Assembly: GCA_041906305.1 (NCBI GenBank)
Contig: JAYRJL010000009.1
Coordinates: forward strand, 102,927 to 166,926
From: Alphaproteobacteria bacterium
GTDB lineage: Bacteria > Pseudomonadota > Alphaproteobacteria > SHVZ01
Direction of reading: 5' to 3'
DNA length: 64,000 nucleotides
Of the stretch, positions 3,091 through 56,157 are shown one piece after another (within the stretch, counting starts at the first letter, position 1; the number at the start of each line of letters is the position of its first letter). A program made the position numbers and the translations under genes. The notes beneath the pieces are model-generated. The model made no database searches and was not told the DNA's origin. It saw nothing but the letters and a program-made list of their open reading frames with translations.

Positions 3091-3132
3091 GAAACTTTCG
3101 GGCGCCGCGCTTCGGCGGCGGAGGACGACGCT

Positions 3133-3600: not shown

Positions 3601-3642
3601 CGCAAATGAAACGGGCCGGAGAGCGTTGTGCTCGTCCGGCCC
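3601..3642 (-). terminator. Rho-independent terminator of lon
   Basis: Stem gggccgga/tccggccc (3613-3620 and 3635-3642). On the minus strand it is followed by GTTTCATTTG, 23 nt downstream of the lon stop. Confidence 0.55.
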
Positions 3643-3664
3643 GTCGATAGTCGAGACGAAAGAC

Positions 3665-13001: not shown

Positions 13002-13904
13002 TCAGCCTGACAAGCCTGCGGCCGCCAGCGGCTCCTTCAGGAACGCGCGCATGGGCGCCTCCATCCGGAAGCGGCGCTGGGCATCGATCCCGAACCCGAC
13101 CGCATCCCCCTTGAGAAGCTCGTCGATCGCGTCGGCGAGGTCGGCGTAAGGTGCCGCCCGGCAATACGAGAACAGGTAGCGCAGGTCGCCCGTATCGAAA
13201 TGCTCGGCCGCGACCGCGACCCCGGCGTGGAGTCCGGCGACGATCCGGCTCGGCGAGTTGAACCGCACCCATTCCGCCCGGCGGACGTCGACGATCAGCT
13301 TGGTCCGCTTCAGCATGTCGAGGCGAATGTAGTCGGGCATCACGCCGAGGGTCGATCGAACGTTCCAGCCGCGCCGGCTCAGGTCCTCCATGATCGCGGT
13401 GCGCCTCGGCACGGTGAGCCCGTAGATCAGGACGTCGATGTCCTGGCCGCCGGGCCGCCGCTTCTCGGCCAAGGCATGCACGTACCCGAAACGCAGGAAG
13501 GCGACCTTCCTCGGATCGGGCACGAAGCGCGCATAGTCCGTTATCGGTACGAGCGACCAGACGAAGTCCGCGACCTCGAGCATGCGCAGAAGATGCTCGC
13601 GCCGGTCGGGAAACGACGGGTTGTCCATGACCGAGGGATCGCCGATGTCCTCGGTGACCAGCAAGCCCAGGGGGAAGTCGTTGCCGAGCATCCGCTTGCG
13701 CTCGATCACGCCGTCGACGAAGGCGCGGTCGGGGAAGAACTCGATCAGGAGGTTCACGACGGGGCGGTTGTACAGGAAGCCGTTCTCGTACTGGACCGAA
13801 TGGCCGGCCTCGGCGAGGCCGGCGGCCAACGGCTGAAGGATATCGCCGATGGTGACCAGGCTGCCGTGCGGATGGTTCTGCAGGTAGATGCTGAACTTCG
13901 CCAT
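13002..13904 (-). CDS. Conserved hypothetical protein (300 aa, cytoplasmic), tightly linked downstream of ppx
   Basis: Clean ORF with balanced composition. It starts 3 nt after the ppx stop and ends 14 nt before the next gene. I recognise no domain. Confidence 0.55.
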   Translation of the reverse strand: MAKFSIYLQNHPHGSLVTIGDILQPLAAGLAEAGHSVQYENGFLYNRPVVNLLIEFFPDRAFVDGVIERKRMLGNDFPLGLLVTEDIGDPSVMDNPSFPDRREHLLRMLEVADFVWSLVPITDYARFVPDPRKVAFLRFGYVHALAEKRRPGGQDIDVLIYGLTVPRRTAIMEDLSRRGWNVRSTLGVMPDYIRLDMLKRTKLIVDVRRAEWVRFNSPSRIVAGLHAGVAVAAEHFDTGDLRYLFSYCRAAPYADLADAIDELLKGDAVGFGIDAQRRFRMEAPMRAFLKEPLAAAGLSG

Positions 13905-13907
13905 CGC

Positions 13908-28046: not shown

Positions 28047-28496
28047 CTAGGCGCCCTTCTCCCAGCCGCCGGCGTCGGTCTGGCGCCAGTACGTGACTTC
28101 GTGGCCCTGGGCCTTGTAGGCCTTCCAGTGCTCACGGGCGCGCGTCACCTGCGTCTCGTCGCGGCCGTCGAAGATCTCGAAGCAGCGCTCGTAGGAGCCG
28201 AGCTTCGCCGTCTCCTGGCCGTCGATCAGCATCACGAACTCGGCCTTGTTCGGGTTCTCGTCATCCGCCGTCAGCCATACCGGCTGATGCTCGGCGTTGC
28301 CGTCCCTCTCGGTGCCGTGCGGCAGGAAGGAATTCGGATCGAAGGTCCAGAGCTGTGCCGACAGAGCTTCGACCCTCTCGGTCGACCCGGCGAGCACGAC
28401 GGCGCGCTTTCCCAGGGACAGCGCGCGGTCGAGCAGCCTGGCGAGCGCCCAGTCGAGCGATCGGGTGGTCAGGTGATAGAAGCCGACCTCGCTCAC
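28047..28496 (-). CDS. holC: DNA polymerase III subunit chi
   Basis: MSEVGFYHLTTRSLDWALARLLDRALSLGKRAVVLAGSTERVEALSAQLWTFDPNSFLPHG is chi-subunit-like. It is adjacent to pepA, and holC-pepA synteny is conserved. Confidence 0.85.
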   Translation of the reverse strand: MSEVGFYHLTTRSLDWALARLLDRALSLGKRAVVLAGSTERVEALSAQLWTFDPNSFLPHGTERDGNAEHQPVWLTADDENPNKAEFVMLIDGQETAKLGSYERCFEIFDGRDETQVTRAREHWKAYKAQGHEVTYWRQTDAGGWEKGA

Positions 28497-28505: not shown

Positions 28506-29996
28506 CTACTTCGACTCGTAGTAGCTCTTCACGAGATGGTCGAGCAGGCGCACGCCGTAGGCGGTTGCGCCCTTCGGCGTCGTCGGCTTGTCCTTCGACG
28601 ACCACGCCATGCCGGCGATGTCGAGGTGTGCCCACGGCACGTCGTTGGTGAAGCGCTTCATGAACATCGCCGCCTTGCACGAGCCGCCGTCGCGCGTGCC
28701 GGAGTTCTTCATGTCGGCGATGTCGGAGTCCATGCCGCGGTCGAAGCTTTCGGCGAGCGGCATCCGCCACAGGCCCTCGCCCGTCACCTTGGCCGAGGCC
28801 AGCAGGCGGTCTGAGAGCTCGTCGTCGGTGACGAAGGCGCCGGCGAACTCGTGGCCGAGCGAGATGATGATCGCGCCGGTGAGGGTCGCCAGGTCGATCA
28901 TGAAGCGTGGCTTGAAGCGGTCCTGGCAGTACCAGAGCGCGTCGGCCAGCACGAGCCGGCCCTCGGCGTCGGTGTTGGTGACCTCGATGGTCTGGCCGGA
29001 CATGCTCTTGACCACGTCGCCGGGGCGCTGGGCGTTGCCGTCGGGCATGTTCTCGACCAGGCCGACGATGCCGATCACGTTCGCCTTGGCCTTGCGGCCG
29101 GCGACGGCGCGCATGAGGCCGATCACGGCGGCGGAGCCGCCCATGTCCCACTTCATGTCTTCCATGCCGGCGGCCGGCTTCAGCGAGATGCCGCCGGTAT
29201 CGAAGGTCACGCCCTTGCCGATGAAGGCGAGCGGCTTCTCCTTCGACTTGGGGTCGCCGTTCCACTGCATGACGACGAGCTGGCTTTCCTTGCGGCTGCC
29301 CTGGCCGACGCCGAGAAGCGCGCCCATGCCGAGCTTGGTCATCTCCTTGACGCCGAGGACCTCGACCTTGATGCCGTGCGCGGTGAGCGACTTGCACTGG
29401 TCGGCGAGGGTCTTCGGATAGAGCACGTTGCCCGGCTCGGAGACGAGGTCGCGGGCGAAGAAGACCGCATCGCCGATCTGCTCGAGCTCGGCGTAGACGC
29501 GCTGCGCGGTGCGGCTGGCCTCGACATGGACCGTGACCCGCTGCAGCGTCGGCTTGTCTTCCGGCTTCTCCTTGGTGCGGTACTTGTCGAAGCGGTAGGA
29601 GCGAAGCTTGACGCCGAGCGCGAAATGCGCGGCGACGATGCCGCCCTCCTCGCCGGGAAGATCGATCGCGACCGACGCCTCGCGCACACCGGAATTGCCG
29701 AGCTCGGCGACCAGCGCGCCGCCCATCGCCTCGACGTCGACCGGCTTCATCTCGCCCTTGGGCTTGCCGAGGCCGAGCAGCACGATGCGGTCGGCATCGA
29801 GCCCGGCCGGAGCCAGGATCGAGAGAACCTGGCGGGCCTTGCCGACGAAACGGGTGCCGGCGACGGCGCGGGTGATCGCACCCTTGGCCTTGCGGTCGAG
29901 CTCGGTCGCGCTCGACGTCAGCTTCTTGCCTTCATAGGCGCCGACGACGAGCGTGCCCTTCGCCGGGAGCCCCGGCTTGGAAAACGAGATTTTCAT
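28506..29996 (-). CDS. pepA: Leucyl aminopeptidase (M17)
   Basis: NTDAEGRLVLADAL is the M17 active-site signature. VTFDTGGISLKP and GKGVTFDTGG are also M17 motifs. Confidence 0.95.
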   Translation of the reverse strand: MKISFSKPGLPAKGTLVVGAYEGKKLTSSATELDRKAKGAITRAVAGTRFVGKARQVLSILAPAGLDADRIVLLGLGKPKGEMKPVDVEAMGGALVAELGNSGVREASVAIDLPGEEGGIVAAHFALGVKLRSYRFDKYRTKEKPEDKPTLQRVTVHVEASRTAQRVYAELEQIGDAVFFARDLVSEPGNVLYPKTLADQCKSLTAHGIKVEVLGVKEMTKLGMGALLGVGQGSRKESQLVVMQWNGDPKSKEKPLAFIGKGVTFDTGGISLKPAAGMEDMKWDMGGSAAVIGLMRAVAGRKAKANVIGIVGLVENMPDGNAQRPGDVVKSMSGQTIEVTNTDAEGRLVLADALWYCQDRFKPRFMIDLATLTGAIIISLGHEFAGAFVTDDELSDRLLASAKVTGEGLWRMPLAESFDRGMDSDIADMKNSGTRDGGSCKAAMFMKRFTNDVPWAHLDIAGMAWSSKDKPTTPKGATAYGVRLLDHLVKSYYESK

Positions 29997-30118
29997 TGGA
30001 AGCTCCTCCCGATGCGGGGACTTGAGGCGTGACGGGGCTCGAGGCTGGGCAGGAATCGATGGAGAGCCATTAGCGCCCGCCCGTTTCGGCTGTCAATGGC
30101 GCGGGGTGCCGTGGCACA

Positions 30119-31804
30119 TTGACCGGAGCCCTTTCAACGCGCGACGGACCATCGGTGCTCTCATTCCTCGCCTCTCCCTGGGCGCGGGCTCTCGTGCTCG
30201 TCGTAACGCTGGCGGCTCTGCTGCCGGGAGCGCTGCGCCTGCCGCCGATCGACCGCGACGAATCCCGCTACGCGCAGGCGACCAAGCAGATGCTCGAGAC
30301 GAAGGATTTCGTCCGCATCCGCTTCCAGGACGAGCCCCGGAACAAGAAGCCAGCCGGCGTGCACTGGATGCAGGCGGCCGCGGTCACGCTGTTCGCACCG
30401 GAAGCGCGCCAGATCTGGGCCTATCGCCTGCCGTCGATCCTCGGCGTGCTGATCGCCGTCGCGCTCACCATGGCCATCGCGCGCCGCCTCTACGACACGA
30501 TGACTGCCGGTGTCGCCGGCGGACTGATCAGCGCCGCGCTCCTGACCCAGGTCATGGGGCAGCAGGCGACGACCGACGGCGCGCTGCTGGCATCCGCGGT
30601 CGCGGCGCAGGGTGCGCTGGTGCTGGCCTATGTGCGGCAGCGTCGCGGCGAGCTCGTTCGTCCCGGCCTCGCCCTCGGCTTCTGGGCTGCCCTGGGCCTA
30701 GCGGTCCTGATCAAGGGACCGGTGATCCTCGCCGTCTCGGCCTTGACCGCGATCACGCTGTCAGTCGCCGACAAGGACTGGCGCTGGCTCAGGCTGCTCA
30801 GGCCCCTTCCCGGCGTCGTCCTGATGCTGGCGATCGCGAGCCCGTGGTTCATCGCGATCCAGCTCGCGACCGACGGCGGCTTCGTGCGCGACGCGGTCGG
30901 CAACGACCTGCTGCCGAAGCTGATCGGCGGCCAGGAGAGTCACGGCGCGCCGCCGGGCTACTACCTGGCGCTGGTCAGCCTCACCTTCCTTCCGGCTTCG
31001 CTGGTGCTGTGGCCGGCGCTGCGCGAGGCATGGTCCGATCGCCTCGATGCGCCGACCCGGGCGCTGCTGGCCTGGGCGATCCCGGCCTGGCTCCTGTTCG
31101 AGGCGGTGCCGACCAAGCTGCCCCACTATGTGCTGCCGATGTTCCCGGCGCTGGCCATGCTCGCCGCGCGCCTTCTCGTCCGCTCCGCCGACGGCGAGCG
31201 CACTGCCCTCGACAGCGCCTGGTCCAAGGTCTTCGCGCTCCCCTGGCTCATCGGCAGCGTGGCGCTCGCCGCCGCGCCCGTGGCGATCGGCTTCGTCCTC
31301 GACCGGCGCATCGACCCGACGGCACTCGTGCTCGGGCTTGGCGCCTCGACTGCCACGCTCATCGCCGCGATCGCCGTCATGCGCGGCCGTTGGCTCGCCG
31401 CGAGCGCGGTCTCCGCGGTAACCGCGTGGGCCGTCATGGCCGGCACCTTCGGGCAGGTGCTACCGCGCCTCGACCCGCTCTGGCTCGGGCGCGACGCGGC
31501 GGCGACCGTCGCCCGTCTCGCCCCGGGAACCGGCGCCGAGTCGCTCGCCGCCTCCGGCTATGCCGAGCCTAGCCTGGTTTTCGCGGTCGGCGCGCCGGTG
31601 CGCCTGGTCGAGGCCGGGACAGCCGCGAGATTCCTGGCCGAATCCCCCGGCCGGGTGGCCCTGATCGGCCGGGAGGAGCGGCCGGCGTTCGAGGCCGCCT
31701 TGGCGGCGGCCGGCGCCCGGGCCGAAGCGCTCGACACCCTCGCCGGCTTCAACTATTCCAAGGGCCGGTGGACCACGCTGACGCTCTATCGGCGGCACCC
31801 GTGA
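30119..31804 (+). CDS. GT39/GT83-type (ArnT/PMT-like) integral-membrane glycosyltransferase, undecaprenyl/dolichyl-phosphate-sugar dependent
   Basis: RLPPIDRDESRYAQATKQMLETKDFVRIRFQDEPRNKKPAGVHWMQAAAV is the hallmark DE-containing first periplasmic loop of ArnT/PMT enzymes. About 12 TM segments. The start is uncertain: TTG at 30119 or GTG at 30155. Confidence 0.8.
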   Translation: MTGALSTRDGPSVLSFLASPWARALVLVVTLAALLPGALRLPPIDRDESRYAQATKQMLETKDFVRIRFQDEPRNKKPAGVHWMQAAAVTLFAPEARQIWAYRLPSILGVLIAVALTMAIARRLYDTMTAGVAGGLISAALLTQVMGQQATTDGALLASAVAAQGALVLAYVRQRRGELVRPGLALGFWAALGLAVLIKGPVILAVSALTAITLSVADKDWRWLRLLRPLPGVVLMLAIASPWFIAIQLATDGGFVRDAVGNDLLPKLIGGQESHGAPPGYYLALVSLTFLPASLVLWPALREAWSDRLDAPTRALLAWAIPAWLLFEAVPTKLPHYVLPMFPALAMLAARLLVRSADGERTALDSAWSKVFALPWLIGSVALAAAPVAIGFVLDRRIDPTALVLGLGASTATLIAAIAVMRGRWLAASAVSAVTAWAVMAGTFGQVLPRLDPLWLGRDAAATVARLAPGTGAESLAASGYAEPSLVFAVGAPVRLVEAGTAARFLAESPGRVALIGREERPAFEAALAAAGARAEALDTLAGFNYSKGRWTTLTLYRRHP

Positions 31805-32499
31805 CGCCGCATCCCTGGTACTGGCCGCGACCCGCGCCGATCGCGTGGTTCTGGGCGGTGACGGTCGCGGCTGCGGTATTGGTCGGCCTCGGCGTGGGCT
31901 GGCTCGACCGCCCGGTGGCGATCTGGTTCCAGGGCCATGGCGACGAGACGATGAGGATCTTCCGCCGGCTCTCGCTCCCCGGCGACTCGGTCTGGTACCT
32001 CGTCGGCGGCGGCATTGGCGCACCGCTCGCCTATGTTCTCTCCCGACGCTACGCCGCACCGGCCCGAGACCGGCTGCTCAAGCTCGCGAGCCGGCTCGCC
32101 TTCCTCTTCCTCGCCGTCGCCGCGACCGGGCTCGCTGCCGACCTCTTCAAGATCCTGGTCGGCCGGGCGCGGCCGAAGCATCTGTTCCAGGACGGCATCA
32201 TGTCGATCGCGCCCGGAACGCTCAGCTCGTCCTGGTGGTCCTTCCCGTCCGGCCATTCGACGACGGTCGGCGCGGTCGCGATGACGCTGAGCCTGGTCTT
32301 CCCCAGGCTCGCATGGATGTGGATCCTGCTCGCGCTCGCCGTGGCGCTCGGCCGCGTCGGCGCCACCGCGCATTTCGTCAGCGACACCGTCGCCGGGCTC
32401 TGGCTCGGGGCGATCGGCGCGCTTCTCGTCAGCTGGGCGCTGGCGCGCCGGGCGGACACGATCGAGCGCCGCTGGGGGTTGCCGCGATGCGTTGGATGA
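31801..32499 (+). CDS. PAP2 family phosphatase (LpxE/PgpB-like lipid phosphatase)
   Basis: KILVGRARP ... PSGHS ... RVGATAHFVSD are the three PAP2 motifs (KxxxxxxRP, PSGH, SRxxxxxHxxxD). GTG at 31801 overlaps the stop of the upstream GT39 gene (GTGA). The track start ATG at 31768 is the alternative. Confidence 0.8.
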   Translation: MTPHPWYWPRPAPIAWFWAVTVAAAVLVGLGVGWLDRPVAIWFQGHGDETMRIFRRLSLPGDSVWYLVGGGIGAPLAYVLSRRYAAPARDRLLKLASRLAFLFLAVAATGLAADLFKILVGRARPKHLFQDGIMSIAPGTLSSSWWSFPSGHSTTVGAVAMTLSLVFPRLAWMWILLALAVALGRVGATAHFVSDTVAGLWLGAIGALLVSWALARRADTIERRWGLPRCVG

Positions 32500-33599
32500 C
32501 GCGCTATCCGCTGCGCCAGATGACGACGGCGCTGCTGTTCGCACTCGGCGCGGTGACGCTCGCGATCTGGCTGACCCAGGCGCTCCGCTTCGTCGACCTG
32601 ATCGTCAACCGCGGCCTGCCGATCGAGACCTTCCTGCACCTGGCCGTGCTGCTGCTGCCGCAGTTCTTCCAGCTGGTGCTGCCGATCGCCACGTTCTCGG
32701 CGGTGGTGTTCTCATACAACAAGATGCAGGCCGACTCCGAGCTCGTGGTGATGCGGGCGACCGGACTCTCTTCCGTCGGCCTGTCGAAGCCCGCCCTCCT
32801 CATGGCCCTGGGCGCCACCGCCTGCGCCTACGCGCTCAGCCTCTACTTCTCGCCGGTCGCGCACAGCGCCTTCAAGGACCTGCAGTTCCAGATCCGCAAC
32901 CAGTTCACCAACGTGCTGCTGCGCGAAGGCGTGTTCACCAACATCGGCGAGAAGATGACGGTCTACATCCGCCAGCGCGAAAGCTCGGGCGAGCTCCTCG
33001 GCGTGCTGGTCCAGGACGAGACCGACGCCAAGAAGCAGGTGACCATGGTCGCCGAGCGCGGCGCGCTGGTGCGCGGCGAGGACGGCCCGAAGGTGCTGAT
33101 GGTCAACGGCAACCGCCAGGAGCGCGACGTCGCCTCCGGACGGCTCTCGATCCTCTACTTCGAAAGCTACGCGCACGACCTCGGCCGCCTGCAGCAGGGT
33201 TCGATGCTGCGCTGGCGCGAGCCGCGCGAGCGCTTCATCCACGAGCTGTTCTGGCACGAGGGCAGCCAGATCGACATGGAGCATCACACCGAGCTGATGG
33301 CCGAGGGCCACCAGCGGATCGTGACGCCGCTGTTCTGCATCACCTTCACGCTGATCGCGCTCGCCGCGATCCTCAGCGGCGAATTCTCGAGGCGCGGCCA
33401 TCTCGGCCGCATCCTGGTCGCGATCCTCGCGGTGATCCTCTGCCAGGCCGCCAACCTCGGCGCGACCTACGCAGCGGTCCGAACGCTCGCGGTGGTGCCG
33501 CTGATGTATGCCGTGGCGATCCTGCCCGGCCTTGCCGCGCTCTGGATGATCGTCCATCCGCGGCGCCGCGCGATCCCTCGCCTGGCACCGGCCGAGTAG
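32487..33599 (+). CDS. lptF: LPS export ABC transporter permease LptF
   Basis: YjgP/YjgQ family. MTRYPLRQMTTALLFALGAVTLAIWLTQALRFVDLIV is the N-terminus and it is followed by lptG. An alternative ATG at 32496 overlaps the PAP2 stop (ATGA). Confidence 0.85.
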   Translation: MRWMTRYPLRQMTTALLFALGAVTLAIWLTQALRFVDLIVNRGLPIETFLHLAVLLLPQFFQLVLPIATFSAVVFSYNKMQADSELVVMRATGLSSVGLSKPALLMALGATACAYALSLYFSPVAHSAFKDLQFQIRNQFTNVLLREGVFTNIGEKMTVYIRQRESSGELLGVLVQDETDAKKQVTMVAERGALVRGEDGPKVLMVNGNRQERDVASGRLSILYFESYAHDLGRLQQGSMLRWREPRERFIHELFWHEGSQIDMEHHTELMAEGHQRIVTPLFCITFTLIALAAILSGEFSRRGHLGRILVAILAVILCQAANLGATYAAVRTLAVVPLMYAVAILPGLAALWMIVHPRRRAIPRLAPAE

Positions 33600-33600
33600 C

Positions 33601-34695
33601 ATGCGTCTTTCACGCACCCTCTCGATCTACATCGGGCGCCAGTTCCTCTACTGGTTCGCCTGCGTGTTCCTGGCCCTGCTGGCGTTGACCTTCGTCTTCG
33701 ACCTGGTCGAGCTCCTGCGCCGGATCGCCGGCCGGCAGCAGGCCGGGCTCGGCATCGTGATCCAGCTCGCGCTGTTCAAGCTGCCGACGATGGCGCAGAT
33801 GCTGCTGCCCTTCGCGGTGCTGTTCTCGACGATGATGACCTACTGGCGGCTGACGCGGAGCCAGGAGCTGGTCGTCGCCCGCGCCGCCGGCGTTTCGGTG
33901 TGGCAGTTCCTGCTGCCGGCGCTGGCCGCCGCCCTCCTGATCGGCGCGTTCCGCACCACGCTGTTCAATCCGGTCGCCTCGGTGCTGACCCAGCGCTACG
34001 AGCAGATCGAGGCGCAGGTCTTCCGGGGCCGCACCAGCCTCCTCGCCGTCTCGGAGTCGGGCCTCTGGCTCCGCCAGATGAGCGACCGCGGGCAGTCGAT
34101 CATGCACGCCCAGGGCGTCTCTCAGCAGCACATGGAGCTGCTGGACGCGACCGTCTTCCTCTACGAGGGTCTCGACAAGTACTCCGGGCGCATCGACGCC
34201 GCCTCGGCCCGTCTCGAGGAGGGCTCGTGGCTGCTCCGCGACGCCCTGGTTTCGATGGGCGACCGGCCGCCGGTGCGCGAACCGATCATGCGGATCTCGA
34301 CCGACCTCACGATCGAGACGATCCAGGACAGCTTCGCCGCGCCCGAGACGATGAGCTTCTGGGAGCTGCCGGCCTTCATCGAGGTGCTGGAGAAGGCGGG
34401 CTTCTCGGCCGCGCGCCACCGTCTCCACCTGCACGGGCTGCTCGCGGCTCCGCTGATGCTCTGCGCCATGGTGCTGATCGCGGCGACCTTCTCGCTCCGC
34501 ATGGTCCGCCGCGGCGGCACGCTCGCGGTCGCCGGCGCCGGCATTTTCGCCGGCTTCCTCGTCTACTTCGCCTCCGACGTGATCTTCGCCCTCGGCCTTT
34601 CCGGACGGCTCCCGGTCGAGCTCGCCGCCTGGACGCCGGCGTCCATCTCGACGCTTCTCGGTCTCGCCATGCTCCTGCACCTCGAGGACGGCTGA
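33601..34695 (+). CDS. lptG: LPS export ABC transporter permease LptG
   Basis: MRLSRTLSIYIGRQFLYWFACVFLALLALTFVFDLVELL is the YjgP/YjgQ signature. It starts 2 nt after lptF. Confidence 0.9.
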   Translation: MRLSRTLSIYIGRQFLYWFACVFLALLALTFVFDLVELLRRIAGRQQAGLGIVIQLALFKLPTMAQMLLPFAVLFSTMMTYWRLTRSQELVVARAAGVSVWQFLLPALAAALLIGAFRTTLFNPVASVLTQRYEQIEAQVFRGRTSLLAVSESGLWLRQMSDRGQSIMHAQGVSQQHMELLDATVFLYEGLDKYSGRIDAASARLEEGSWLLRDALVSMGDRPPVREPIMRISTDLTIETIQDSFAAPETMSFWELPAFIEVLEKAGFSAARHRLHLHGLLAAPLMLCAMVLIAATFSLRMVRRGGTLAVAGAGIFAGFLVYFASDVIFALGLSGRLPVELAAWTPASISTLLGLAMLLHLEDG

Positions 34696-36869
34696 TGCGC
34701 CTTCTCTTCGCCGTTCTCCTTTTCGTCGGTCTGGCCGCCGCCCCGGCCTCGGCCCAGCGCGGCAGCATGCGCCCCAGCAGCGAGCCGGTGCTGATCAAGG
34801 CCGACCAGCTGACGCACCATCAGGATCTCGGCACCATCGTCGCCACCGGCAACGTCGAGATCGTGCAGGGCGATCGCATCCTGCTCGCCGACAGCGTCAC
34901 CTACAGCGAGCGCGAGGACAAGGTCACCGCCACGGGCAACGTCAGCCTGACCCAGGTCACCGGCGAGGTGCTGTTCGCCGACTTCATCGAGCTGACCGGC
35001 GGCATGCGCGACGGCTACATCGAGAACCTGCGCGCGCTTCTCGCCGACAACAGCCGGCTCGCCGCGAACGCCGCGCGCCGCGTCGACGGAAACCGCAAGG
35101 AGATGACGCGCGCCGTCTACTCTCCCTGCGAACTCTGCAAGACCGATCCGACCAAGGCGCCGCTCTGGCAGATCAAGGCGATCAAGGTCGTCCACGACGA
35201 GGTCGCGCACGACATCGAGTACCAGGACGCCACGCTCGAGATGTGGGGCATCCCGGTCGCCTACTTCCCGACCCTGACCCACGCCGACCCGACGGTGCGC
35301 CAGCGCTCCGGCCTGCTCGCGCCCAAGCTCGGACGATCGGGCGACGTCGGCGCCATCGTCGGCGTTCCCTACTACTGGGCGATCAGCCCGAGCCAGGACC
35401 TGACGGTCGAGCCGATCATGTATTCGTCGGACGGCGGCCTGGTCACCACCGAGTACCGGCAGCGCTTCGCCAAGGGCCGGCTCTCGGTCGCCGGCAGCCT
35501 CGGCTATCTCGACCAGCGCGAAGGCGACACCAAGACCGGCGACCAGACCGCCAAGGGCCATATCGACGCGTCGACCCGGTTCGACCTGACGGACGTGTGG
35601 CGGAGCGGCGCCGATCTCCGGCGCTCGTCGGATCGGCTCTATCTCAAGCGCTACAAGCTCGGCGATCCCGAGGTGCTGACCAGCCGCGCCTTCGCCGAAG
35701 GCTTTTCCGGCCGCGACTACATGTCGTTGAACGCCTATTCGTTCCAGGGTCTCCGCGCGACCGACATCCGCGAACAGTCGCCGCTGCTGGCGCCTTACAC
35801 CTATTACTCCTATGTCGGCGAGCCGGGACGCCACGGCGGCCGCTTCTCGATGGACGCCAGCGCCATGTCGCTGACGCGCGACGTGGGCGCGGATTCGAAC
35901 CGGCTGGCGATGACCAGCGGCTGGACGCTTCCCTACACCTCGCCCGCCGGCGAGATCTATACGCTCCAGACCCTCCTCTACACCGACGGCTACTGGACCG
36001 CCGACGTGCAGGACCCGACGCGGCCGGGCAGCAGCTTCGAGGACGGGTTCGCGGGCCGCATCGTCCCGCAGATGAAGCTCGAGTGGCGCTACCCCTGGGT
36101 CAGGCGCGACACCGGCTTCCGCACGGTGATCGAGCCGATCGTCGACACGGTCATCAGCCCCGTCGGCGGCAACCCCGACCGCATCCCGAACGAGGATGCC
36201 CAGGTCTTCGAGCTCGACGAGACCAACCTGTTCCAGGCGAACCGCTTCGGCGGCTTCGACCGCGTGTCGACCGGCCAACGCGTCGACTACGGCCTCAAGG
36301 TCGGCTTCTACAGCGATGCCGGCCGCAGCGTCACCGCGCTGTTCGGACAGAGCTACGCCTTCCAGCGCGACTCGGCCTACGTGCTCGGGTCAGGCGTGAA
36401 CGAGAGCTGGTCGGACTATGTCGGCCGCCTGACTCTGTCGCCCGGCCCTTTCCTCGACCTCATCTACCGGTTCCGGCTGGACGAGGACAATTTCGCGCTC
36501 CGCCGCAACGAGATCGGCCTCTCGGCCGGCCCGTCCTGGCTCCGCCTCGACAGCTATTACCTGCAGGTGGCGTCGCGTCCGGACGTGCCCCAGATCGGCC
36601 AGCGGCGCGAGCTGGCGACCGTGATCAGCGCCCAGCTCTCGACCCACTGGTCGACGCAGGCAAGGCTGGTGCGCGACCTCGGCGCATCTCAGGACAAGAA
36701 CCGGCTCGCCGGGATCACCTTCAACTACGGCGACGAGTGCTTCACATTCGCCTTCGACATCACCCGTCGCTACACCACCGACGGATCGCTGAAGCCGGAC
36801 ACCACCGCCTTCGTCCGGCTGGTGTTCAAGAATCTCGGCCAGGTCGAAGCACGCGGGCTCGGGTTCTGA
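34695..36869 (+). CDS. lptD: LPS assembly outer-membrane protein LptD
   Basis: Signal peptide MRLLFAVLLFVGLAAAPASAQ. The OstA N-domain (ADQLTHHQDLGTIVATGNVEIVQGDRILLADSVTYSE) is followed by a large beta-barrel. The start overlaps the lptG stop (TGATG). This is the C-terminal 724 aa of the track ORF 33900..36869. Confidence 0.9.
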   Translation: MRLLFAVLLFVGLAAAPASAQRGSMRPSSEPVLIKADQLTHHQDLGTIVATGNVEIVQGDRILLADSVTYSEREDKVTATGNVSLTQVTGEVLFADFIELTGGMRDGYIENLRALLADNSRLAANAARRVDGNRKEMTRAVYSPCELCKTDPTKAPLWQIKAIKVVHDEVAHDIEYQDATLEMWGIPVAYFPTLTHADPTVRQRSGLLAPKLGRSGDVGAIVGVPYYWAISPSQDLTVEPIMYSSDGGLVTTEYRQRFAKGRLSVAGSLGYLDQREGDTKTGDQTAKGHIDASTRFDLTDVWRSGADLRRSSDRLYLKRYKLGDPEVLTSRAFAEGFSGRDYMSLNAYSFQGLRATDIREQSPLLAPYTYYSYVGEPGRHGGRFSMDASAMSLTRDVGADSNRLAMTSGWTLPYTSPAGEIYTLQTLLYTDGYWTADVQDPTRPGSSFEDGFAGRIVPQMKLEWRYPWVRRDTGFRTVIEPIVDTVISPVGGNPDRIPNEDAQVFELDETNLFQANRFGGFDRVSTGQRVDYGLKVGFYSDAGRSVTALFGQSYAFQRDSAYVLGSGVNESWSDYVGRLTLSPGPFLDLIYRFRLDEDNFALRRNEIGLSAGPSWLRLDSYYLQVASRPDVPQIGQRRELATVISAQLSTHWSTQARLVRDLGASQDKNRLAGITFNYGDECFTFAFDITRRYTTDGSLKPDTTAFVRLVFKNLGQVEARGLGF

Positions 36870-36942
36870 GCCCGCTCCGGCCGCCCCGGCCTCGCCTCGC
36901 CAAAACTTGCCTCCATGGACCGCAAGCAGTAGGTCTCACCCG

Positions 36943-38181
36943 ATGATGCTGGTTCGTCTCGCCCTTCTCGCCGTCCTCGCCCTGGCACCTGCGGCCGTGG
37001 CCCAGGACGCCATGCGGATCGCCGCGATCGTCAACGACGAGGCGATCTCGTTCCGCGACCTCGACGCCCGCATCCATCTCGTCCTGGTATCGAGCAACGT
37101 CGGCGACACGCAGGAGAACCGCCGCCGGGCCGCGCCCCAGGTGCTGCGCCAGCTGATCGACGAGCGCCTCCAGTTCCAGGAGGCCAAGCGGCTCAATATC
37201 GACGTGACCGAGGCCGAGATCGCCGACGCGCTCAAGCGCATCGAGACCGACGCCAAGATGCCGCCGGGCGGCATCGAGGACGAGATCAAGCGCGCCGGCA
37301 TCCACCGCCCTTCCCTGATCGACCAGATCCGGGCCGGACTGATCTGGCAAAAGCTGATCCGACGCCAGGTCGCCCCGCAGGTCCAGGTCGGCGACGACGA
37401 GGTCGAGGAGATCTACACCAGCATCGTCCGCTCGAAGGACCTGCCCGAGCTCCGGATCGCCGAGATCCAGCTGGGCATCGATCGCCCCGACCGCGAGGCC
37501 GAAGTCCGGCGGTTCGCCGAACAGCTGATCGAGCAGATGCGCGGCGGCGCCGACTTCGCCGCCCTGGCCCGCCAGTTCTCGGAAGGATCCAGCGCCGCGA
37601 CCGGCGGCGATATCGGCTGGGTACTGCCGACCCAGCTCGACGACACGATCGAGCGCGAGGTGTCGAAGGCCCAGCCCGGCGCCATCGTCGGTCCGATCCG
37701 GACCATTTCCGGCTTCAGCATCGTAAGGCTCATGGACCGGCGCCTGCTGCAGGGCCCCGGCTCCGAAGACATCGTCGTCAACCTGCGCCAGGCGCTGTTC
37801 CCGGTCTCCGGCGACGAAGCCGCGGCGCGCCAGCGCGCAGCGGCGATGGCCGAGGCCAAAGCCTGCCCCGACTTCGAGAAGATCGCAGAGGAGCAGAAGG
37901 CACTGAAGCCCTACAGCCTCGGCCGCCTCAAGATCAGCGAACTCAACAACGCCATCAAACCGCTGGTCGCGTCGATCGACGCCGGCAAGATGAGCGAGCC
38001 GACCAAGATCGCCGACGTGGTCGTCGTCTTCATGGTCTGCGACAAGACCCAGCAGGAGGCCGCAGGAGTCCCCAAGCGCGAGGAGATCCGCGAGCAGGTG
38101 TTCCGCAGCAAGCTCTCGATCGTCTCGCGCCGCTATCTCCGCGACCTTCGCCGCGCCGCGTACCTGGACTTCCGCACGTGA
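36943..38181 (+). CDS. surA: Periplasmic chaperone/peptidyl-prolyl isomerase SurA
   Basis: Signal peptide MMLVRLALLAVLALAPAAVAQ, then the SurA N-domain and parvulin domains. Conserved lptD-surA-pdxA-rsmA order. Confidence 0.85.
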   Translation: MMLVRLALLAVLALAPAAVAQDAMRIAAIVNDEAISFRDLDARIHLVLVSSNVGDTQENRRRAAPQVLRQLIDERLQFQEAKRLNIDVTEAEIADALKRIETDAKMPPGGIEDEIKRAGIHRPSLIDQIRAGLIWQKLIRRQVAPQVQVGDDEVEEIYTSIVRSKDLPELRIAEIQLGIDRPDREAEVRRFAEQLIEQMRGGADFAALARQFSEGSSAATGGDIGWVLPTQLDDTIEREVSKAQPGAIVGPIRTISGFSIVRLMDRRLLQGPGSEDIVVNLRQALFPVSGDEAAARQRAAAMAEAKACPDFEKIAEEQKALKPYSLGRLKISELNNAIKPLVASIDAGKMSEPTKIADVVVVFMVCDKTQQEAAGVPKREEIREQVFRSKLSIVSRRYLRDLRRAAYLDFRT

Positions 38182-39188
38182 CCTCTGCCCTGGCGCTGAC
38201 CATGGGCGAGCCCGCCGGCATCGGCGGTGAGATTTCGCTGATGTCGTGGTCGAAGCGCGCCGGTGGCGTTCCGCCGTTCTTCGTGCTGGACGATCCCGAT
38301 CGCCTGAAAGCGCTCGCCGCCAGGATCGGCCTTGCGACGCCGATCGCTGCGATCTCGGCGCCTGAGGAAGCCGCTGTCCGCTTCGCCGAGGCACTGCCGG
38401 TTCTCCCGGTCAAGCTCGCCGCGACCGCGACCCCCGGCAGGCTCGATCCCGCCAATGCCAGCGCGGTGCTCGAGGCGATCCGCCGCGCCGTCGATCTCGT
38501 GCGCATGGGCCGAGCCCGCGCGGTCGTCACCAACCCGATCCACAAGCACGCGCTCTACCAGGCGGGGTTCAATCACCCGGGACACACCGAGTACCTGGCC
38601 GAGCTCGCCGCCGAGAACGGCCGCACGCCCACCCCGGTGATGATGCTGGCCTGCCCCGAGCTCAAGGTCGTGCCGGTCACGATCCACCTGGCCCTGAAGC
38701 GTGCGATCTCGGACCTGACGTCCGAGATGATCGTGGAGACCGGCGAGATCCTGGCCCGCGACCTGAAGACCCGCTTCGGCAAGACGAACCCGCGGATCGC
38801 GGTCGCCGGCCTCAACCCGCATGCCGGGGAGAGCGGCGCGCTCGGCAAGGAGGACGACGAGATTGTCCGTCCCGCGGTCGAGGCGCTGAAGAAGCTCGGC
38901 ATCGACGCGACCGGTCCCTGGGCCCCGGACTCCATGTTCCATGCCGATGCCCGCGCCACGTACGACGCAGCGCTCTGCATGTACCACGATCAGGCGCTGA
39001 TCCCGATCAAGACGCTGGACTTCCACGGCGGCGTCAACGTGACGCTCGGCCTTCCCTTCATCCGGACCTCTCCCGACCACGGCACCGCGCTCGACATCGC
39101 CGGAACCGGCAGGGCCAATCCGGCGAGCCTGATCGCGGCGCTCAGGCTCGCCGACGCGATGGCGGAGAGCAGCGCTGGCCGCGCTTGA
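38178..39188 (+). CDS. pdxA: 4-hydroxythreonine-4-phosphate dehydrogenase
   Basis: [14 protein letters not shown]...[17 protein letters not shown]...[12 protein letters not shown] are the PdxA motifs. The GTG start overlaps the surA stop. Confidence 0.9.
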
Positions 39189-39996
39189 GGCGCTGCCGCC
39201 GCTCGGCGAGGTCATCCGCCGTCACGGGCTGCAGGCGGTCAGGGCCCTCGGCCAGAACTTCCTTCTCGACCTCAACCTGACGGGCAAGATCGCGCGGTCG
39301 GCCGGCGATCTCGGCCACGGCACCACGATCGAGATCGGGCCGGGGCCCGGCGGCCTCACCCGGGCGCTTCTTCTGGCCGGTGCCAGGAAAGTCGTCGCAA
39401 TCGAGCGCGACCGTCGCGCGATGCCGGTGCTGGCCGAGATCGCTGCGGCAGCGGATGGAAGACTGGAGGTAGTCGAGGGCGACGCGCTCGAGATCGATGC
39501 CGCATCCCTCGGCGAGGCGCCACGGCGGATCGTCGCCAATCTCCCCTACAACATCGCGACACCGCTGCTTTTCGCCTGGCTCGCGAAGATCCGCGACTTC
39601 GAAAGCCTGACCCTGATGTTCCAGAAGGAAGTCGCCGAGCGCATCACCGCGCAGCCGAACTCGAAGGCCTATGGGCGCCTCGCGGTGATGACGCAGTGGG
39701 TCGGCGAGGCGAAGCGCCTGTTCGACATTCCGCCCCGCGCCTTCACGCCGCCGCCGAAGGTGACCTCCTCGGTGGTGCGGATCACGCCTCGTGCCGCGCC
39801 CGAGCCGGCCGATCCGAAGACGATGGAGCGCGTGGTCGCGACCGCCTTCAACCAGCGGCGCAAGATGCTTCGCCAGGCGCTCAAGCCGCTCGGCGATGGC
39901 GAAGGAATCCTGGCGAAAGCCGGCATCGACCCGACACGACGCGCCGAGACCTTGAGCGTCTCGGAGTTCGCCGCGCTCGCCCGCGCGGCTCAGTAG
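39175..39996 (+). CDS. rsmA: 16S rRNA (adenine1518/1519-N6)-dimethyltransferase RsmA/KsgA
   Basis: [38 protein letters not shown]...[14 protein letters not shown] is canonical KsgA. The frame opens at 39133, but the first canonical start (ATG 39421) lies after the SAM-binding motif. CTG at 39175 (or CTG at 39193) is the only plausible initiator, so the start coordinate is uncertain. Confidence 0.8.
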
Positions 39997-40628
39997 CCCT
40001 GCTGCAGGCCCTTGACGAAGTTCGGCAGGCCGATCTGCCGCTGCCGACGCATGCGCTCCGCGGTCAGGATCGCGTGGACCTGCGCCACGCTCTGCTCGAA
40101 GTCGTGGTTGACCACGATGTAGTCGTACTCCGGCCAGTGGCTCATCTCGTCGGACGCCTTGCTCATCCGCTTGGCGACGATCGCGGGCGTATCCTGTGCC
40201 CGGCTCTTGAGGCGACGCTCGAGCTCGCCGGTCGACGGCGGCAGGATGAAGACGCTGACCAGATCCTCCCGCGCCGAATCCCTCAGCTGCTGGGTGCCTT
40301 GCCAGTCGATGTCGAACAGCACGTCGCGCCCCGTCGCCAGCTGTTCCTCGACCGGCTTCTTCGGCGTGCCGTAGTAGTTGTCGAAGACCTTCGCGTGCTC
40401 GAGCAGCTCGCGGCGGTTGACCATCAGGTCGAACTCGATGCGGTCGATGAAGTGATAGTCGCGGCCGGCGACCTCGCCCGGACGCATCTTGCGGGTGGTG
40501 ACCGAGACCGACATCGTGATCGCGCCGTCGAGCTCGAGCAGGCGTCGTGCGATCGAGGTCTTGCCGGCGCCGGACGGCGACGACAGCACCAGCATCAGCC
40601 CGCGGCGGGAGACTCCGTTCTGGCTCAT
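39990..40628 (-). CDS. gmk: Guanylate kinase
   Basis: [21 protein letters not shown] is the P-loop and [28 protein letters not shown] follows. Conserved yicC-gmk order. Confidence 0.95.
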
Positions 40629-42821: not shown

Positions 42822-43123
42822 GAGAAATCCCCTTCGATGGCGTCGCCGGAGAAGTAGAGCGTGTCGAAGCCCGGATCGAGAGAGGTCGCGAGGCTTTCGG
42901 ATCCGTCGAGGGCCCAGCCGACCCAGAGCCCGAGGCAGGCGGCCGCGGCCAGCGTCGTCAGGCGCGCCCAGGTCCAGCCGAAGACCGGTCCCTTGCGGAC
43001 GGCCTTCGCCATGATCGCATGCATGACCGCCGATCGGGCCGGCGCGACCTGCCAGGCATCGAGCACACGGGCGAGCCGGCGCTCCTCGGCCGGCGTCAGT
43101 TCAGTTTCAGGCGTCATGACCAT
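42818..43123 (-). CDS. Putative anti-sigma factor (small membrane protein)
   Basis: 101 aa with one TM (LTTLAAAACLGLWVGWAL). It overlaps the ECF sigma gene by 17 nt, the typical sigma/anti-sigma arrangement. Confidence 0.5.
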   Translation of the reverse strand: MVMTPETELTPAEERRLARVLDAWQVAPARSAVMHAIMAKAVRKGPVFGWTWARLTTLAAAACLGLWVGWALDGSESLATSLDPGFDTLYFSGDAIEGDFS

Positions 43124-43688
43124 CCTCCACGAGATCCGACATCAGCGGCTGCAGGCGATCCCGCAGATGCCGCTTGGCGCGGATCAGAAGCGATTCCAGC
43201 GCACCGACGGTGATCCCCATCACCTCGGCCGCCTCGATGTTGCCGAGCTCCTCGTAGTGGCAGAGCGTCAGCGCGGTGCGCTGGCGTTCGGGGAGCTCGC
43301 CGACCGCGGCCTGGACCGACTTGGCGACTTCGGCCCGATGCAGCGTGCGAAAGGCGTTCGGCTGCTCGTCCTCGGGCTCCGCAATCTCCTCGATCGGCGT
43401 CGTCCGGGGCTTTCGCAGCCGGTCGATCGCGGCGTTGACCACGACCCGGTAGAGCCAGGTCGTGAAACGTCCTCCCTCCGGCCGCCAGCGGTCGGCGTGC
43501 TGCCAAACCCTGAGGAACGCATCCTGCGCCACGTCCTCCGCCTCGCCACGGTCGCCCAGCAGGCGCTGGGCGGTTCTGACGGCACGGTCGAGATGCCGGG
43601 AAACCAGGGTGCCGAAGGCCACCCGGTCGCCATCGGCGATCCGCGCCATCAATGCCTCGTCGGCCGTTTCGTCCATCGCACGACTCAA
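43107..43688 (-). CDS. ECF (sigma-70 family) RNA polymerase sigma factor
   Basis: Region 2 (DVAQDAFLRVWQHADRW...FTTWLYRVVVNAAIDRLR) and region 4 (LPERQRTALTLCHYEELGNIEAAEVMGITVGALESLLIRAKRHL). Confidence 0.9.
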   Translation of the reverse strand: MSRAMDETADEALMARIADGDRVAFGTLVSRHLDRAVRTAQRLLGDRGEAEDVAQDAFLRVWQHADRWRPEGGRFTTWLYRVVVNAAIDRLRKPRTTPIEEIAEPEDEQPNAFRTLHRAEVAKSVQAAVGELPERQRTALTLCHYEELGNIEAAEVMGITVGALESLLIRAKRHLRDRLQPLMSDLVEDGHDA

Positions 43689-43743
43689 CGCCGGCCGACC
43701 TCCTGAGGTTGGAACGGGCTACCGCGCGACTTCCTGCGCTTAC

Positions 43744-46334: not shown

Positions 46335-46349
46335 TGGTAAGAAGCGCTT

Positions 46350-47480
46350 ATGACCTCCCGCCTTCCGTTCGTCGACCTCCAGGCGCAGCGCCGCCGCATC
46401 GGACCTTGCCTCGACGAGGCGCTGGCGCGCGTGCTGGCGCATGGCCAGTTCATCCTCGGACCCGAGGTGCGCGAGCTCGAAGCGAAGCTGGCATCCTTCT
46501 CCGGCGTGAAGCACTGCATCAGCTGCGCCAACGGCACCGACGCGCTGCTGCTGCCGCTGATGGCATGGGGCATCGGGCCGGGCGACGCGGTGCTGGTGCC
46601 GTCGTTCACCTTCGTTGCGTCGGCCGAGGTCGTGGTGCTCGCCGGCGCCACGCCGGTCTTCGTCGACGTCGACCGCACGAACTTCAACGTGACGCCGGAA
46701 AGCCTCGAGCTCGGCATCCGCGCCGCGCGCGAGGCCGGCCTCGCGCCCAAGGTGGCGATGCCGGTCGACCTGTTCGGCCAGCCGGTCGACTTCGCGAAGA
46801 TCGAGCCGGTCTGCCGCAAGCATGGCCTGAAGATTCTTTCCGACGCCGCGCAGAGCTACGGCGGCGCTCAGGGAAACCGCCGTGTCGGCTCGCTCGCGCC
46901 GGTGACCTCGACCAGCTTCTTCCCCTCGAAGCCGCTCGGCACCTATGGCGACGGCGGCGCGATCTTCACCGACGACGGCGAGATCGACGCTCTCCTCCGC
47001 AGCATACGCATGCACGGCCAGGGCATCGACAAGTATCACAACGTCCGCATCGGCCTTAACTCGCGGCTCGATACGATGCAGGCGGCGATCCTGCTGGAGA
47101 AGCTGGCCATCCTCGAGGACGAGATCGCGGCGCGGGACCGCGTCGCCAGGCGCTACGCGGACGCGCTCGCCGACATCTGCGAAGTGCCGCGCATCGCCGC
47201 CGGCAACGTCTCGGCCTGGGCGCAGTACACGATCCTGATCGAGGACCGCGACCGGGTGGCGAAGGAACTGGACGCCGCCGGGATCCCGACAGCGATCTAC
47301 TACCCGATTCCGGTCCATCGCCAGGACGGCTACCGGCACTTCCCCGCCGCCAAGGGCGGGCTCCCGGTGTCGGAGGAGCTGGCGGACCTGGTCCTCAGCC
47401 TGCCGATGCATCCCTACCTGGAGCCGGCCGACCAGGACCGGGTGATTGCGGCGGTGCGTCAGGCGGCCGGCCGCTCGTAA
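46350..47480 (+). CDS. DegT/DnrJ/EryC1/StrS family PLP-dependent sugar aminotransferase
   Basis: FILGPEVRELEAKLASFSGVKHCISCANGTDALLL...FFPSKPLGTYGDGGAIFTDD (PLP Lys in SK). Confidence 0.85.
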   Translation: MTSRLPFVDLQAQRRRIGPCLDEALARVLAHGQFILGPEVRELEAKLASFSGVKHCISCANGTDALLLPLMAWGIGPGDAVLVPSFTFVASAEVVVLAGATPVFVDVDRTNFNVTPESLELGIRAAREAGLAPKVAMPVDLFGQPVDFAKIEPVCRKHGLKILSDAAQSYGGAQGNRRVGSLAPVTSTSFFPSKPLGTYGDGGAIFTDDGEIDALLRSIRMHGQGIDKYHNVRIGLNSRLDTMQAAILLEKLAILEDEIAARDRVARRYADALADICEVPRIAAGNVSAWAQYTILIEDRDRVAKELDAAGIPTAIYYPIPVHRQDGYRHFPAAKGGLPVSEELADLVLSLPMHPYLEPADQDRVIAAVRQAAGRS

Positions 47481-55773: not shown

Positions 55774-56157
55774 TCAAGAACGCGCCGGTGATGGCCCTCT
55801 TAGGACGGCATCGCCTGAACGAAAGATTCGAAGCGAGATCCGAGCCTCGATGCCGACCGTCCAAAATTCAATCTCGCCGAGGGCTTCGAGTGTCGCTTCG
55901 GTCCTCTCTCGGTCGATCTCCCAACAATTGGCCGCAGATAGATAGCGCACCCATGGATTCTCGTGCTCTAGACTCGGCAGGAGAGTCTGCAGAGCGGAGC
56001 GAGACCAAAGTTCATTGGCAATCGCGTATTGCTCTCGGAATTTCCGCGTATACGGTCGGTTCAGGCCGGCTTCCCCGTCTTCGCCCATCAAGATCGCCAG
56101 CTCGACAAAGCGTTCGACGAGTTGCTCGATTGACCGACCAGTAAGGTCTTTTGTCAT
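55774..56157 (-). CDS. Putative immunity protein (127 aa, helical/HEAT-like) cognate to the upstream toxin
   Basis: ATGA start/stop overlap with the toxin gene. Low GC (about 55-58% versus about 68%). Small acidic cytoplasmic protein. The family assignment is tentative (it resembles DUF2019-type immunity proteins, from memory). Confidence 0.5.
   Translation of the reverse strand: MTKDLTGRSIEQLVERFVELAILMGEDGEAGLNRPYTRKFREQYAIANELWSRSALQTLLPSLEHENPWVRYLSAANCWEIDRERTEATLEALGEIEFWTVGIEARISLRIFRSGDAVLRGPSPARS

Follow-up and report, generated by a model that had tools for sequence, protein, structure and literature searches.

A probable RgtF/LpxE-type lipid A remodelling gene pair at the head of the lptF-lptG string in an uncultured alphaproteobacterial clade

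Exchanging a phosphate of lipid A for a sugar alters outer-membrane charge, cationic-peptide resistance and innate immune recognition, and the closest described system for such an exchange comes from Mesorhizobium loti. Its RgtF (mlr0011), an ArnT-superfamily protein of 547 (PMC7795004) or 549 (PMC5644692) amino acids (aa), puts alpha-(1,1)-galacturonic acid (GalA) on lipid A after LpxE has taken the 1-phosphate, the donor being supplied via the family 2 glycosyltransferase (GT2) RgtE, and the lpxE and rgtE genes belong to the same cluster as rgtF (Brown et al., 2013, as cited in PMC5644692, PMC7795004 and PMC7663294). In this article, I will discuss two adjacent genes, for an ArnT-like GT-C glycosyltransferase and a PAP2 phosphatase, that stand immediately before the lipopolysaccharide (LPS) export genes lptF and lptG in a 64,000-nucleotide (nt) stretch of DNA from an alphaproteobacterium represented solely by metagenome assemblies (contig JAYRJL010000009.1 of GCA_041906305.1, positions 102,927-166,926 forward; hereafter the window, in whose numbering all coordinates are given). 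The two, set into the lpt string, probably remodel the lipid A headgroup in the manner of RgtF and LpxE, with lipid A as the acceptor, C-1 as the position and the nature of the sugar proposed by analogy. This is a known kind of enzyme pair, and only the position of its genes is new.

Judged by sequence and by structural modelling, the transferase is ArnT-like and not a protein O-mannosyltransferase. Pfam returns PMT_2 (49.7 bits, cutoff 26.1) and, at the N-terminus, PMT (33.4 bits, cutoff 22.7), with no MIR or PMT_4TMC match in the same search, and the name GT39/PMT-like that the first-pass annotation had given the protein is a misnomer, since it just follows the naming of the Pfam PMT domain, whereas ArnT comes closest in both sequence and fold. 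The sole solved structure matched by sequence is 5EZM, the ArnT of Cupriavidus metallidurans (E 1e-21 over 420 residues). An AlphaFold2 (AF2) model built on 15 diverse homologs (predicted local distance difference test, pLDDT, 84; predicted template-modelling score, pTM, 0.86) likewise finds ArnT first in the PDB, both apo and undecaprenyl-phosphate-bound (5EZM/5F15, E 8.5e-17 to ~9e-17, template-modelling (TM) score 0.67-0.70), then oligosaccharyltransferases at E ~1e-6, with yeast Pmt1-Pmt2 (6P25) in 35th place (E 0.11, TM 0.32); a placement with the protein O-mannosyltransferases, which the first-pass annotation had regarded as telling against a lipid A role, is not what these comparisons gave. 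The most conserved stretch of the family is the RLPPIDRDESRYA loop, and residues D35, K65, D141, K255 and Y325, invariant across 15 diverse homologs, fall in the HMMER alignment to 5EZM on D55, K85, D158, R270 and Y345, which I take to be the functional residues of ArnT in the numbering of Petrou et al. (2016). The protein thus shares with the ArnT of C. metallidurans and Salmonella (5EZM, 5F15) the GT-C fold, the Asp of the first loop, the Lys and Tyr that bind the lipid phosphate and the second Asp, and it has the marks of the CAZy GT83-like ArnT group, namely Pfam scores above threshold, a GT-C fold with a C-terminal periplasmic domain and the first-loop Asp. Because of this ArnT-like sequence, fold and residue conservation, its donor should be a polyprenyl-phosphate-sugar and its site of action the periplasmic side, yet it should not be ArnT itself.

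One could still argue for a true ArnT that moves 4-amino-4-deoxy-L-arabinose (Ara4N) onto a lipid A phosphate beside a PAP2 protein unrelated to that step, given that ArnT tops the NCBIfam, PDB sequence and fold matches and that the Joint Genome Institute (JGI) tags homologs as 'Ara4N transferase-like', but I regard this as extremely unlikely. The ArnT equivalog NF009784, which is the only NCBIfam match, reaches 110.3 bits where the cutoff for ArnT proper is 567; identity to ArnT is 21%; the positions that I take to be the ArnT zinc site (E84, H265 and H267) are not conserved, being K, N and L in the window transferase; and neither the window nor the related loci have an arnB/C/A/D/E/F-like cluster beside the gene. 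Furthermore, ArnT decorates a phosphate, whereas this transferase is paired with a phosphatase, a conserved partner that would take away ArnT's acceptor group.

That partner retains all three canonical PAP2 motifs ascribed to it at first reading, K117-x6-R124-P125, P149-S-G-H152 and R185-x5-H191-x3-D195, and in an alignment of 33 PAP2 sequences K117, R124, P125, P149, S150, G151, H152, R185 and H191 are invariant and D195 nearly so. A KX6RP - PSGH - SRX5HX3D motif defines the membrane lipid-phosphatase branch (PMC6581854), and the window protein has (G)R185 where this definition reads SR. With the LpxE 1-phosphatases of Rhizobium, Francisella, Helicobacter and Aquifex (6EBU) it has in common the motif and, to judge from its model, a small six-helix membrane PAP2 architecture; it differs from them in that a sequence search against solved structures gave no match at E<=0.01 and in that its gene is paired with that of a GT-C enzyme. 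In Helicobacter, lpxE is paired with eptA. The AF2 model of the PAP2 protein (pLDDT 92) consists of six long helices and its top fold matches in the PDB are Bacillus subtilis YodM (5JKI) and then Aquifex aeolicus LpxE (6EBU), which resemble one another according to the LpxE paper (PMC6581854). As a means of discriminating LpxE, the fold was tried and set aside: LpxE and YodM lead, by margins too slim to decide. The Arg-rich C-terminal tail would, by the positive-inside rule, orient the active site towards the periplasm.

A scan of one genome per species for relatives of the transferase, in which the best 80 loci were kept and their 8-kb flanks searched, placed a PAP2 gene near the transferase homolog in 37 of the 80, an rgtE-like GT2 in 39, a small LAB_N ('lipid A biosynthesis N-terminal domain') protein in 34 and a second, unrelated ArnT-like GT-C in 9; 56 loci have at least one of these four partners. 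Where the transferase is paired with a PAP2 gene, genes for a GT2 and a LAB_N protein are usually present too. The PAP2 gene lies mostly immediately 3' of the transferase gene, and the two overlap by 4 nt in at least nine unrelated loci. The loci belong to Azospirillum, Magnetospirillum, Stella, Roseomonas-type Acetobacteraceae, Rhodoplanes, Pseudolabrys, Chelatococcus and a Caulobacter metagenome-assembled genome (MAG), and many more are MAGs labelled delta-proteobacterial (Syntrophobacteria, Desulfarculales); no Mesorhizobium locus is among these best 80, and tblastn of the transferase in a plasmid collection gave homologs from Azospirillum alone. The Azospirillum lipoferum 4B chromid has GT2, LAB_N and transferase homolog in a row (40% identity, 538 aa, E 4e-106), and the lipid A of A. 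lipoferum carries GalA at C-1 according to cited literature. Similarly, the Caulobacter MAG homolog (43% identity) lies beside a GT2 gene, the published Caulobacter rgtF/rgtE candidates being CC_0468/CC_0469 (PMC7663294), and the Pseudolabrys homologs (38% identity) stand in the order GT-PAP2-GT2, the rgtF-lpxE-rgtE candidates of Oligotropha carboxidovorans being consecutive (c19750/c19740/c19730; PMC7663294). Published candidate RgtF homologs are 33-39% identical to M. loti RgtF. The window transferase thus belongs in the family of the published rgtF candidates, which are recognised here by context and not by locus tag.

Set beside the RgtF-LpxE(-RgtE) system of M. loti, the window shows the same ArnT-superfamily GT-C of about 549 aa directly next to a PAP2 phosphatase; the GT2 and LAB_N context recurs in the family, and the reactions would be expected to follow in the same order on the inner membrane's periplasmic face. 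The differences are that the window has no rgtE-like GT2, that the pair is joined to lptF-lptG and not to a donor synthase, and that sugar and position are assigned by analogy. The first-pass proposal of a lipid A/LPS modification pair is supported by the ArnT-like fold, the recurrent PAP2 pairing and the published rgtE-rgtF-lpxE clusters (PMC5644692, PMC7663294, PMC7795004). Of the LpxE/LpxF plus ArnT/RgtD logic invoked with it, dephosphorylation followed by sugar addition holds up, and it is the analogue that changes, RgtF/LpxE at the 1-position appearing to fit best and RgtD/LpxF less well.

The latter analogue amounts to a different proposal, that the pair works in the LpxF/RgtD manner on the 4' position, by 4'-dephosphorylation and then 4'-glycosylation. 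The regiospecificity of a PAP2 protein is not assignable from its sequence (PMC6581854) and both ends of lipid A are modified in many alphaproteobacteria (PMC7663294, PMC9393093), which leaves room for it; however, a separate second GT-C family of ~500 aa, near the 473 aa reported for RgtD, co-occurs in nine of the loci and has no BLASTP similarity to the window transferase (E 0.83), the length of 549 aa is close to the 547 or 549 aa given for M. loti RgtF, and the window transferase groups with the rgtF candidates of Azospirillum, Caulobacter and Oligotropha-like loci, so that I consider a 4' activity very unlikely.

A wider alternative moves the acceptor away from lipid A altogether, to the inner-core sugar Kdo as for RgtA/B/C, to another glycan or to a protein, and makes the PAP2 protein a general undecaprenyl-pyrophosphate or phosphatidylglycerol-phosphate phosphatase. 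An ArnT-type GT-C reaction yields undecaprenyl phosphate, not pyrophosphate, and so needs no pyrophosphatase, for which reason an adjacent phosphatase is better explained by acting on the acceptor. It is true that GT-C enzymes have varied acceptors, that homologs of the PAP2 protein are called 'undecaprenyl-diphosphatase' in some sources, that the undecaprenyl-diphosphatase SepP is its only NCBIfam match (30 bits, far under the cutoff of 250) and that LpxE enzymes also dephosphorylate undecaprenyl pyrophosphate (PMC6581854), but the GT2/LAB_N/GT-C/PAP2 context matches published lipid A GalA clusters (PMC5644692, PMC7663294), and both the adjacency of lptFG and an lptG/GT-C/PAP2 string in Caenispirillum, described below, point to LPS. 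An acceptor other than lipid A is thus unlikely.

Several further points weigh against reading the genes as an RgtF/LpxE-type pair. Bacteria related to this one carry differing sugars at C-1, such as mannose in Bradyrhizobium and glucuronic acid in Acetobacteraceae. In Rhodomicrobium and Phyllobacterium it is GalA (PMC7795004, PMC5644692). No partner gene lies nearby in 24 of the 80 homolog loci, and tblastn found no GT2, LAB_N or second GT-C gene in the 64-kb window. The fold search with the PAP2 model parts LpxE from other PAP2 proteins weakly (E 2e-3 to 4e-2, TM 0.41-0.56), soluble acid phosphatases scoring nearly as high as YodM and LpxE, and characterised LpxE enzymes are just 14-17% identical to one another, so that sequence cannot set specificity (PMC6581854); because of these low identities and narrow fold margins, the specificity of the PAP2 protein is not readable from the protein alone, and it is called LpxE-like by context. 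The presumed orthology to M. loti RgtF, finally, draws on published identities and synteny.

If the RgtF/LpxE-type reading is right, core-lipid A would first be flipped by MsbA into the inner membrane's periplasmic leaflet, where the PAP2 phosphatase would strip it of a phosphate, most likely that at the 1 position; the GT-C enzyme would then move a sugar, by analogy with RgtF a hexuronic acid such as galacturonic acid, from a polyprenyl-phosphate-sugar donor to the freed hydroxyl, and LptB2FG would extract the finished molecule. The genes that make the donor, for an rgtE-like GT2 and a small LAB_N protein, presumably lie elsewhere in the genome, because none is found in the window.

A candidate from the Mesorhizobium side was also considered and rejected. 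The Mesorhizobium and Aminobacter PAP2 matches (P0230 and P0194, the latter named Aminobacter sp. P9b) are not M. loti LpxE but another PAP2, encoded next to metC and away from any transferase gene. The nearest Mesorhizobium and Aminobacter relatives of the window PAP2, in Mesorhizobium sp. L-8-10 (L088) and on a contig of GCA_039534815.1 (L089), are proteins of 233-236 aa whose genes stand alone, flanked by a gene for a pyridoxal phosphate (PLP) enzyme of Cys/Met metabolism and by an amino-acid ATP-binding cassette (ABC) transporter. At several Hyphomicrobiales-labelled loci and in two unclassified MAGs, a GT-GT2-LAB_N cluster adjoins the same PLP-enzyme gene.

What sets the window apart is where the pair lies. 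By Pfam and NCBIfam annotation, all genes from 30119 to 39996 are co-directional on the plus strand, and with the two genes and the spacer that precede them they read as follows.

28047..28496, minus strand: holC (DNA polymerase III chi), from a 99% tblastn match to the near-identical locus L001, whose equivalent gene has PF04364
28506..29996, minus strand: pepA (leucyl aminopeptidase, M17), divergent from the transferase gene; Peptidase_M17 on the equivalent L001 gene
29997..30154, no strand: pepA/transferase spacer of 158 bp, the sole non-coding DNA upstream of lptF
30155..31804, plus strand: ArnT-like GT-C glycosyltransferase of 549 aa, candidate RgtF family (Pfam PMT_2/PMT); the open reading frame reaches upstream to TTG 30119
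31801..32499, plus strand: integral-membrane PAP2 phosphatase of 232 aa, LpxE-like by context (Pfam PAP2, 83.3 bits)
32484..33599, plus strand: lptF (TIGR04407, 246.1 bits, cutoff 230), with its ATG at 32496 or, in frame, at 32484
33601..34695, plus strand: lptG (TIGR04408, 272.7 bits, cutoff 240)
34695..36869, plus strand: lptD (Pfam LptD and LptD_N)
36943..38181, plus strand: surA (Pfam SurA_N and Rotamase), its start taken from the L001 gene call and the sequence
38178..39188, plus strand: pdxA (Pfam PdxA, 350 bits), with a GTG start
39133..39996, plus strand: rsmA (16S rRNA dimethyltransferase; Pfam RrnaAD), the last gene of the string

The TGA of the transferase gene (31802-31804) overlaps the PAP2 GTG at 31801 in the tetranucleotide GTGA (31801-31804), and the PAP2 TGA (32497-32499) overlaps an ATG at 32496 in ATGA (32496-32499), both just as the first-pass annotation had them. 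For lptF there is an alternative ATG at 32484 (MRWMTRY...), called in the related contigs L084 and L085 and preceded by a G-rich Shine-Dalgarno-like run, which may be the actual start, making the PAP2/lptF overlap 16 nt where the ATG at 32496 makes it 4 nt. Downstream, a single nucleotide separates the lptF TAG (33597-33599) from the lptG ATG at 33601, the lptG TGA (34693-34695) overlaps the lptD ATG at 34695 by 1 nt, and a GTGA at 38178-38181 is common to the surA stop and the pdxA start. The gene order from lptF to rsmA given at first reading is therefore correct, but the string is not free of gaps as had been stated, since 73 nt lie between the lptD stop at 36869 and the probable surA ATG at 36943, the only gap in it. 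The transferase start needs moving as well: gene callers choose GTG 30155 and all close homologs are 549 aa long, which makes this codon more likely than the TTG at 30119 originally assigned. In the rsmA frame, no ATG, GTG or TTG occurs before 39421 and none that is canonical near the pdxA stop (39186-39188); the RrnaAD match begins at codon 37 and the N-terminal sequence is RsmA-like, which suggests either that translation begins at a non-canonical codon or that the sequence contains an error close to the end of pdxA.

The same gene arrangement minus the pair is an old one. In Escherichia coli K-12, holC-pepA faces lptF-lptG over a 267-bp spacer, and in Sinorhizobium meliloti holC-pepA faces lptF-lptG-lptD-ppiase-pdxA-rsmA, followed by gmk and yicC, with 313 bp between pepA and lptF. 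The window matches these in order and orientation on both sides, gmk and yicC following rsmA here too, yet it adds the transferase and PAP2 genes between pepA and lptF and has 158 bp before the transferase gene and none before lptF. The simplest reading of these sequences is that the two genes went as one cassette into the front end of an ancient lpt string, and the claim of a physical link between the pair and the Lpt export genes is borne out by this comparison. One of the records involved, CP090106.1 (L093), labelled 'Sinorhizobium meliloti strain Ak57 plasmid pSymB', is 3.7 Mb long with lptFG, lptD, pdxA, rsmA and gmk, and appears to be a mislabelled chromosome; the 3.5-Mb records of Sinorhizobium sp. 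K101, M103 and C101 may be alike.

Arrangement and junction sequences are kept in L001-L004, L084 and L085, the transferases of which are 98% (L001, a MAG), 89% (L004, a 'Rhodospirillaceae' MAG) and 78% (contigs L084 and L085) identical to that of the window, so that the junctions are conserved down to 78% protein identity. The lpt linkage is not seen in the remaining loci; in the next relatives (49-53% identity) the pair persists among different neighbours. Among the loci examined, only a single clade of uncultured alphaproteobacteria, with transferase identity of at least 78%, shows the linkage. In two further contigs (Logan SRR12113389 and SRR12113409; L086 and L087), a 53%-identical transferase and a PAP2 gene also face pepA and no lptFG follows; in its place stands an opposite-strand block for an Acyl_transf_3 protein, a 621-aa protein without a Pfam match, GtrA and a GT2, which looks like a Gtr-type glycan modification set.

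A comparable joining is found in Caenispirillum bisanense (L042; NZ_BAAAEP010000018.1, 979-4305, minus strand), where an lptF/lptG-family gene is followed by a GT-C gene and then a PAP2 gene in abutting or overlapping frames. Its LptF/LptG-family protein is 43% identical to the window LptG, its GT-C (509 aa) is of the other ArnT-like family with no BLASTP similarity to the window transferase, its PAP2 (227 aa) is 30% identical over 145 residues to that of the window, and 3.7 kb separate the string from the transferase-PAP2 pair of the window type in the same genome. This suggests that the linkage arose independently there and that GT-C/PAP2 genes have been joined to Lpt permease genes more than once, which fits the order of the pathway, in which remodelling at the periplasmic face comes right before extraction by LptB2FG (PMC9393093).

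How far the position of the pair reflects shared expression depends on where lptFG transcription begins. The layout is that of an operon (same strand, zero intergenic space, stop/start overlaps at transferase/PAP2/lptF) and is kept in L001, L004, L084 and L085; I infer translational coupling and co-transcription from the overlaps. As no intergenic space precedes lptF, its transcription would start either in the 158-bp spacer or within the two genes, at a promoter that escaped recognition. In the spacer, a 41-nt block at 30081-30121 (CCGTTTCGGCTGTCAATGGCGCGGGGTGCCGTGGCACATTG) is nearly invariant in an alignment of the window, L004, L084 and L085 and partly recognisable in L086; it holds a perfect TTGACA on the minus strand (30096-30091) and a GTGCC-N2-GGCAC inverted repeat, and is probably a promoter or operator, whose minus-strand TTGACA may serve pepA. 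A consensus scan of 29800-40200, which is uninformative for this organism, gave no promoter-like sites, and 4 weak terminator-like sites there, where 2.4 are expected, are at chance level; Rfam and tRNA scans of the window gave only tRNA-Val and tRNA-Leu, both distant from the locus. An lptFG promoter within the transferase/PAP2 coding DNA could exist, and this too counts against giving the position a meaning.

Along these lines, the adjacency to lptFG may be without regulatory meaning, the pair having landed beside pepA, lptFG having kept its own internal promoter and the overlaps being the ordinary packing of a compact GC-rich genome (the window is ~68% GC and reads as a stretch of alphaproteobacterial chromosome). 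The linkage occurs in one clade only, the pair of L086 faces pepA with lptFG missing downstream, 4-nt overlaps are common in the family and in the window itself (for example, surA/pdxA) and no promoter is recognised anywhere in the region. Against this stand the zero space between PAP2 and lptF with junctions conserved across the clade, the independent Caenispirillum string, and the fact that both sets of products handle the same molecule in the same leaflet in consecutive steps (PMC9393093), and I would call such a meaningless adjacency possible though somewhat doubtful. At the other extreme, the linked products might be made from one message in fixed proportion with LptF and LptG, perhaps binding LptB2FG, to give an assembly line of modification and export; as a specific claim this is quite unlikely.

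Co-adaptation of LptG to dephosphorylated lipid A was considered as well. In Shigella LptB2FG, the 1-phosphate of lipid A is bound by K34, K62, R133 and R136, and the charge reversals K34E and R136E are lethal (PMC6744409). In the window LptG, Asp takes the place of E. coli K34, and the counterparts of K62, R133 and R136 are non-basic. The LptG proteins of S. meliloti (L093), Azospirillum and Caenispirillum, however, have the same Asp and non-basic residues (L093 and L094 were compared), S. meliloti makes bis-phosphorylated lipid A (PMC7663294), and a tblastn search with the transferase (E<=1e-20) gave no match in the S. meliloti replicon of the plasmid collection. Co-adaptation is therefore rejected, S. 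meliloti having the same substitutions; since these are common to all three, they are an alphaproteobacterial trait, and to judge from these residues alphaproteobacterial LptG must recognise lipid A differently.

The ~40 other genes of the window are, by Pfam, housekeeping and transport genes plus one DegT-type sugar aminotransferase gene. This DegT/DnrJ/EryC1-type frame (46341-47480) adjoins an amino-acid-type ABC ATPase gene; its best NCBIfam matches are PseC, LegC-type and ArnB, each far below cutoff, and its product may have a role in LPS amino-sugar synthesis. Three long frames at 13002-13907, 42861-43706 and 56154-57392 (301, 281 and 412 aa) have no Pfam or NCBIfam match, the first having been flagged by high third-position GC and the other two picked from lists of open reading frames.

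Enzymes that swap a lipid A phosphate for a sugar have been studied in a handful of species only, and this locus would extend the RgtF/LpxE-type systems to a well-defined clade of uncultured alphaproteobacteria, as a clean natural case of remodelling genes placed in front of the deeply conserved lptFG-lptD-surA string. The set of GT-C, PAP2, GT2 and LAB_N genes recurs in Alphaproteobacteria and in Desulfobacterota-type MAGs, where its genes are now labelled just 'family 39 glycosyltransferase' and 'PAP2 phosphatase', and recognising it should be of use for annotation. If co-expression is true, it would point to a balance of remodelling and export on one transcript; and if the assembly line were true, only remodelled lipid A would be handed to the exporter, and the Caenispirillum string would be a second, convergent example.

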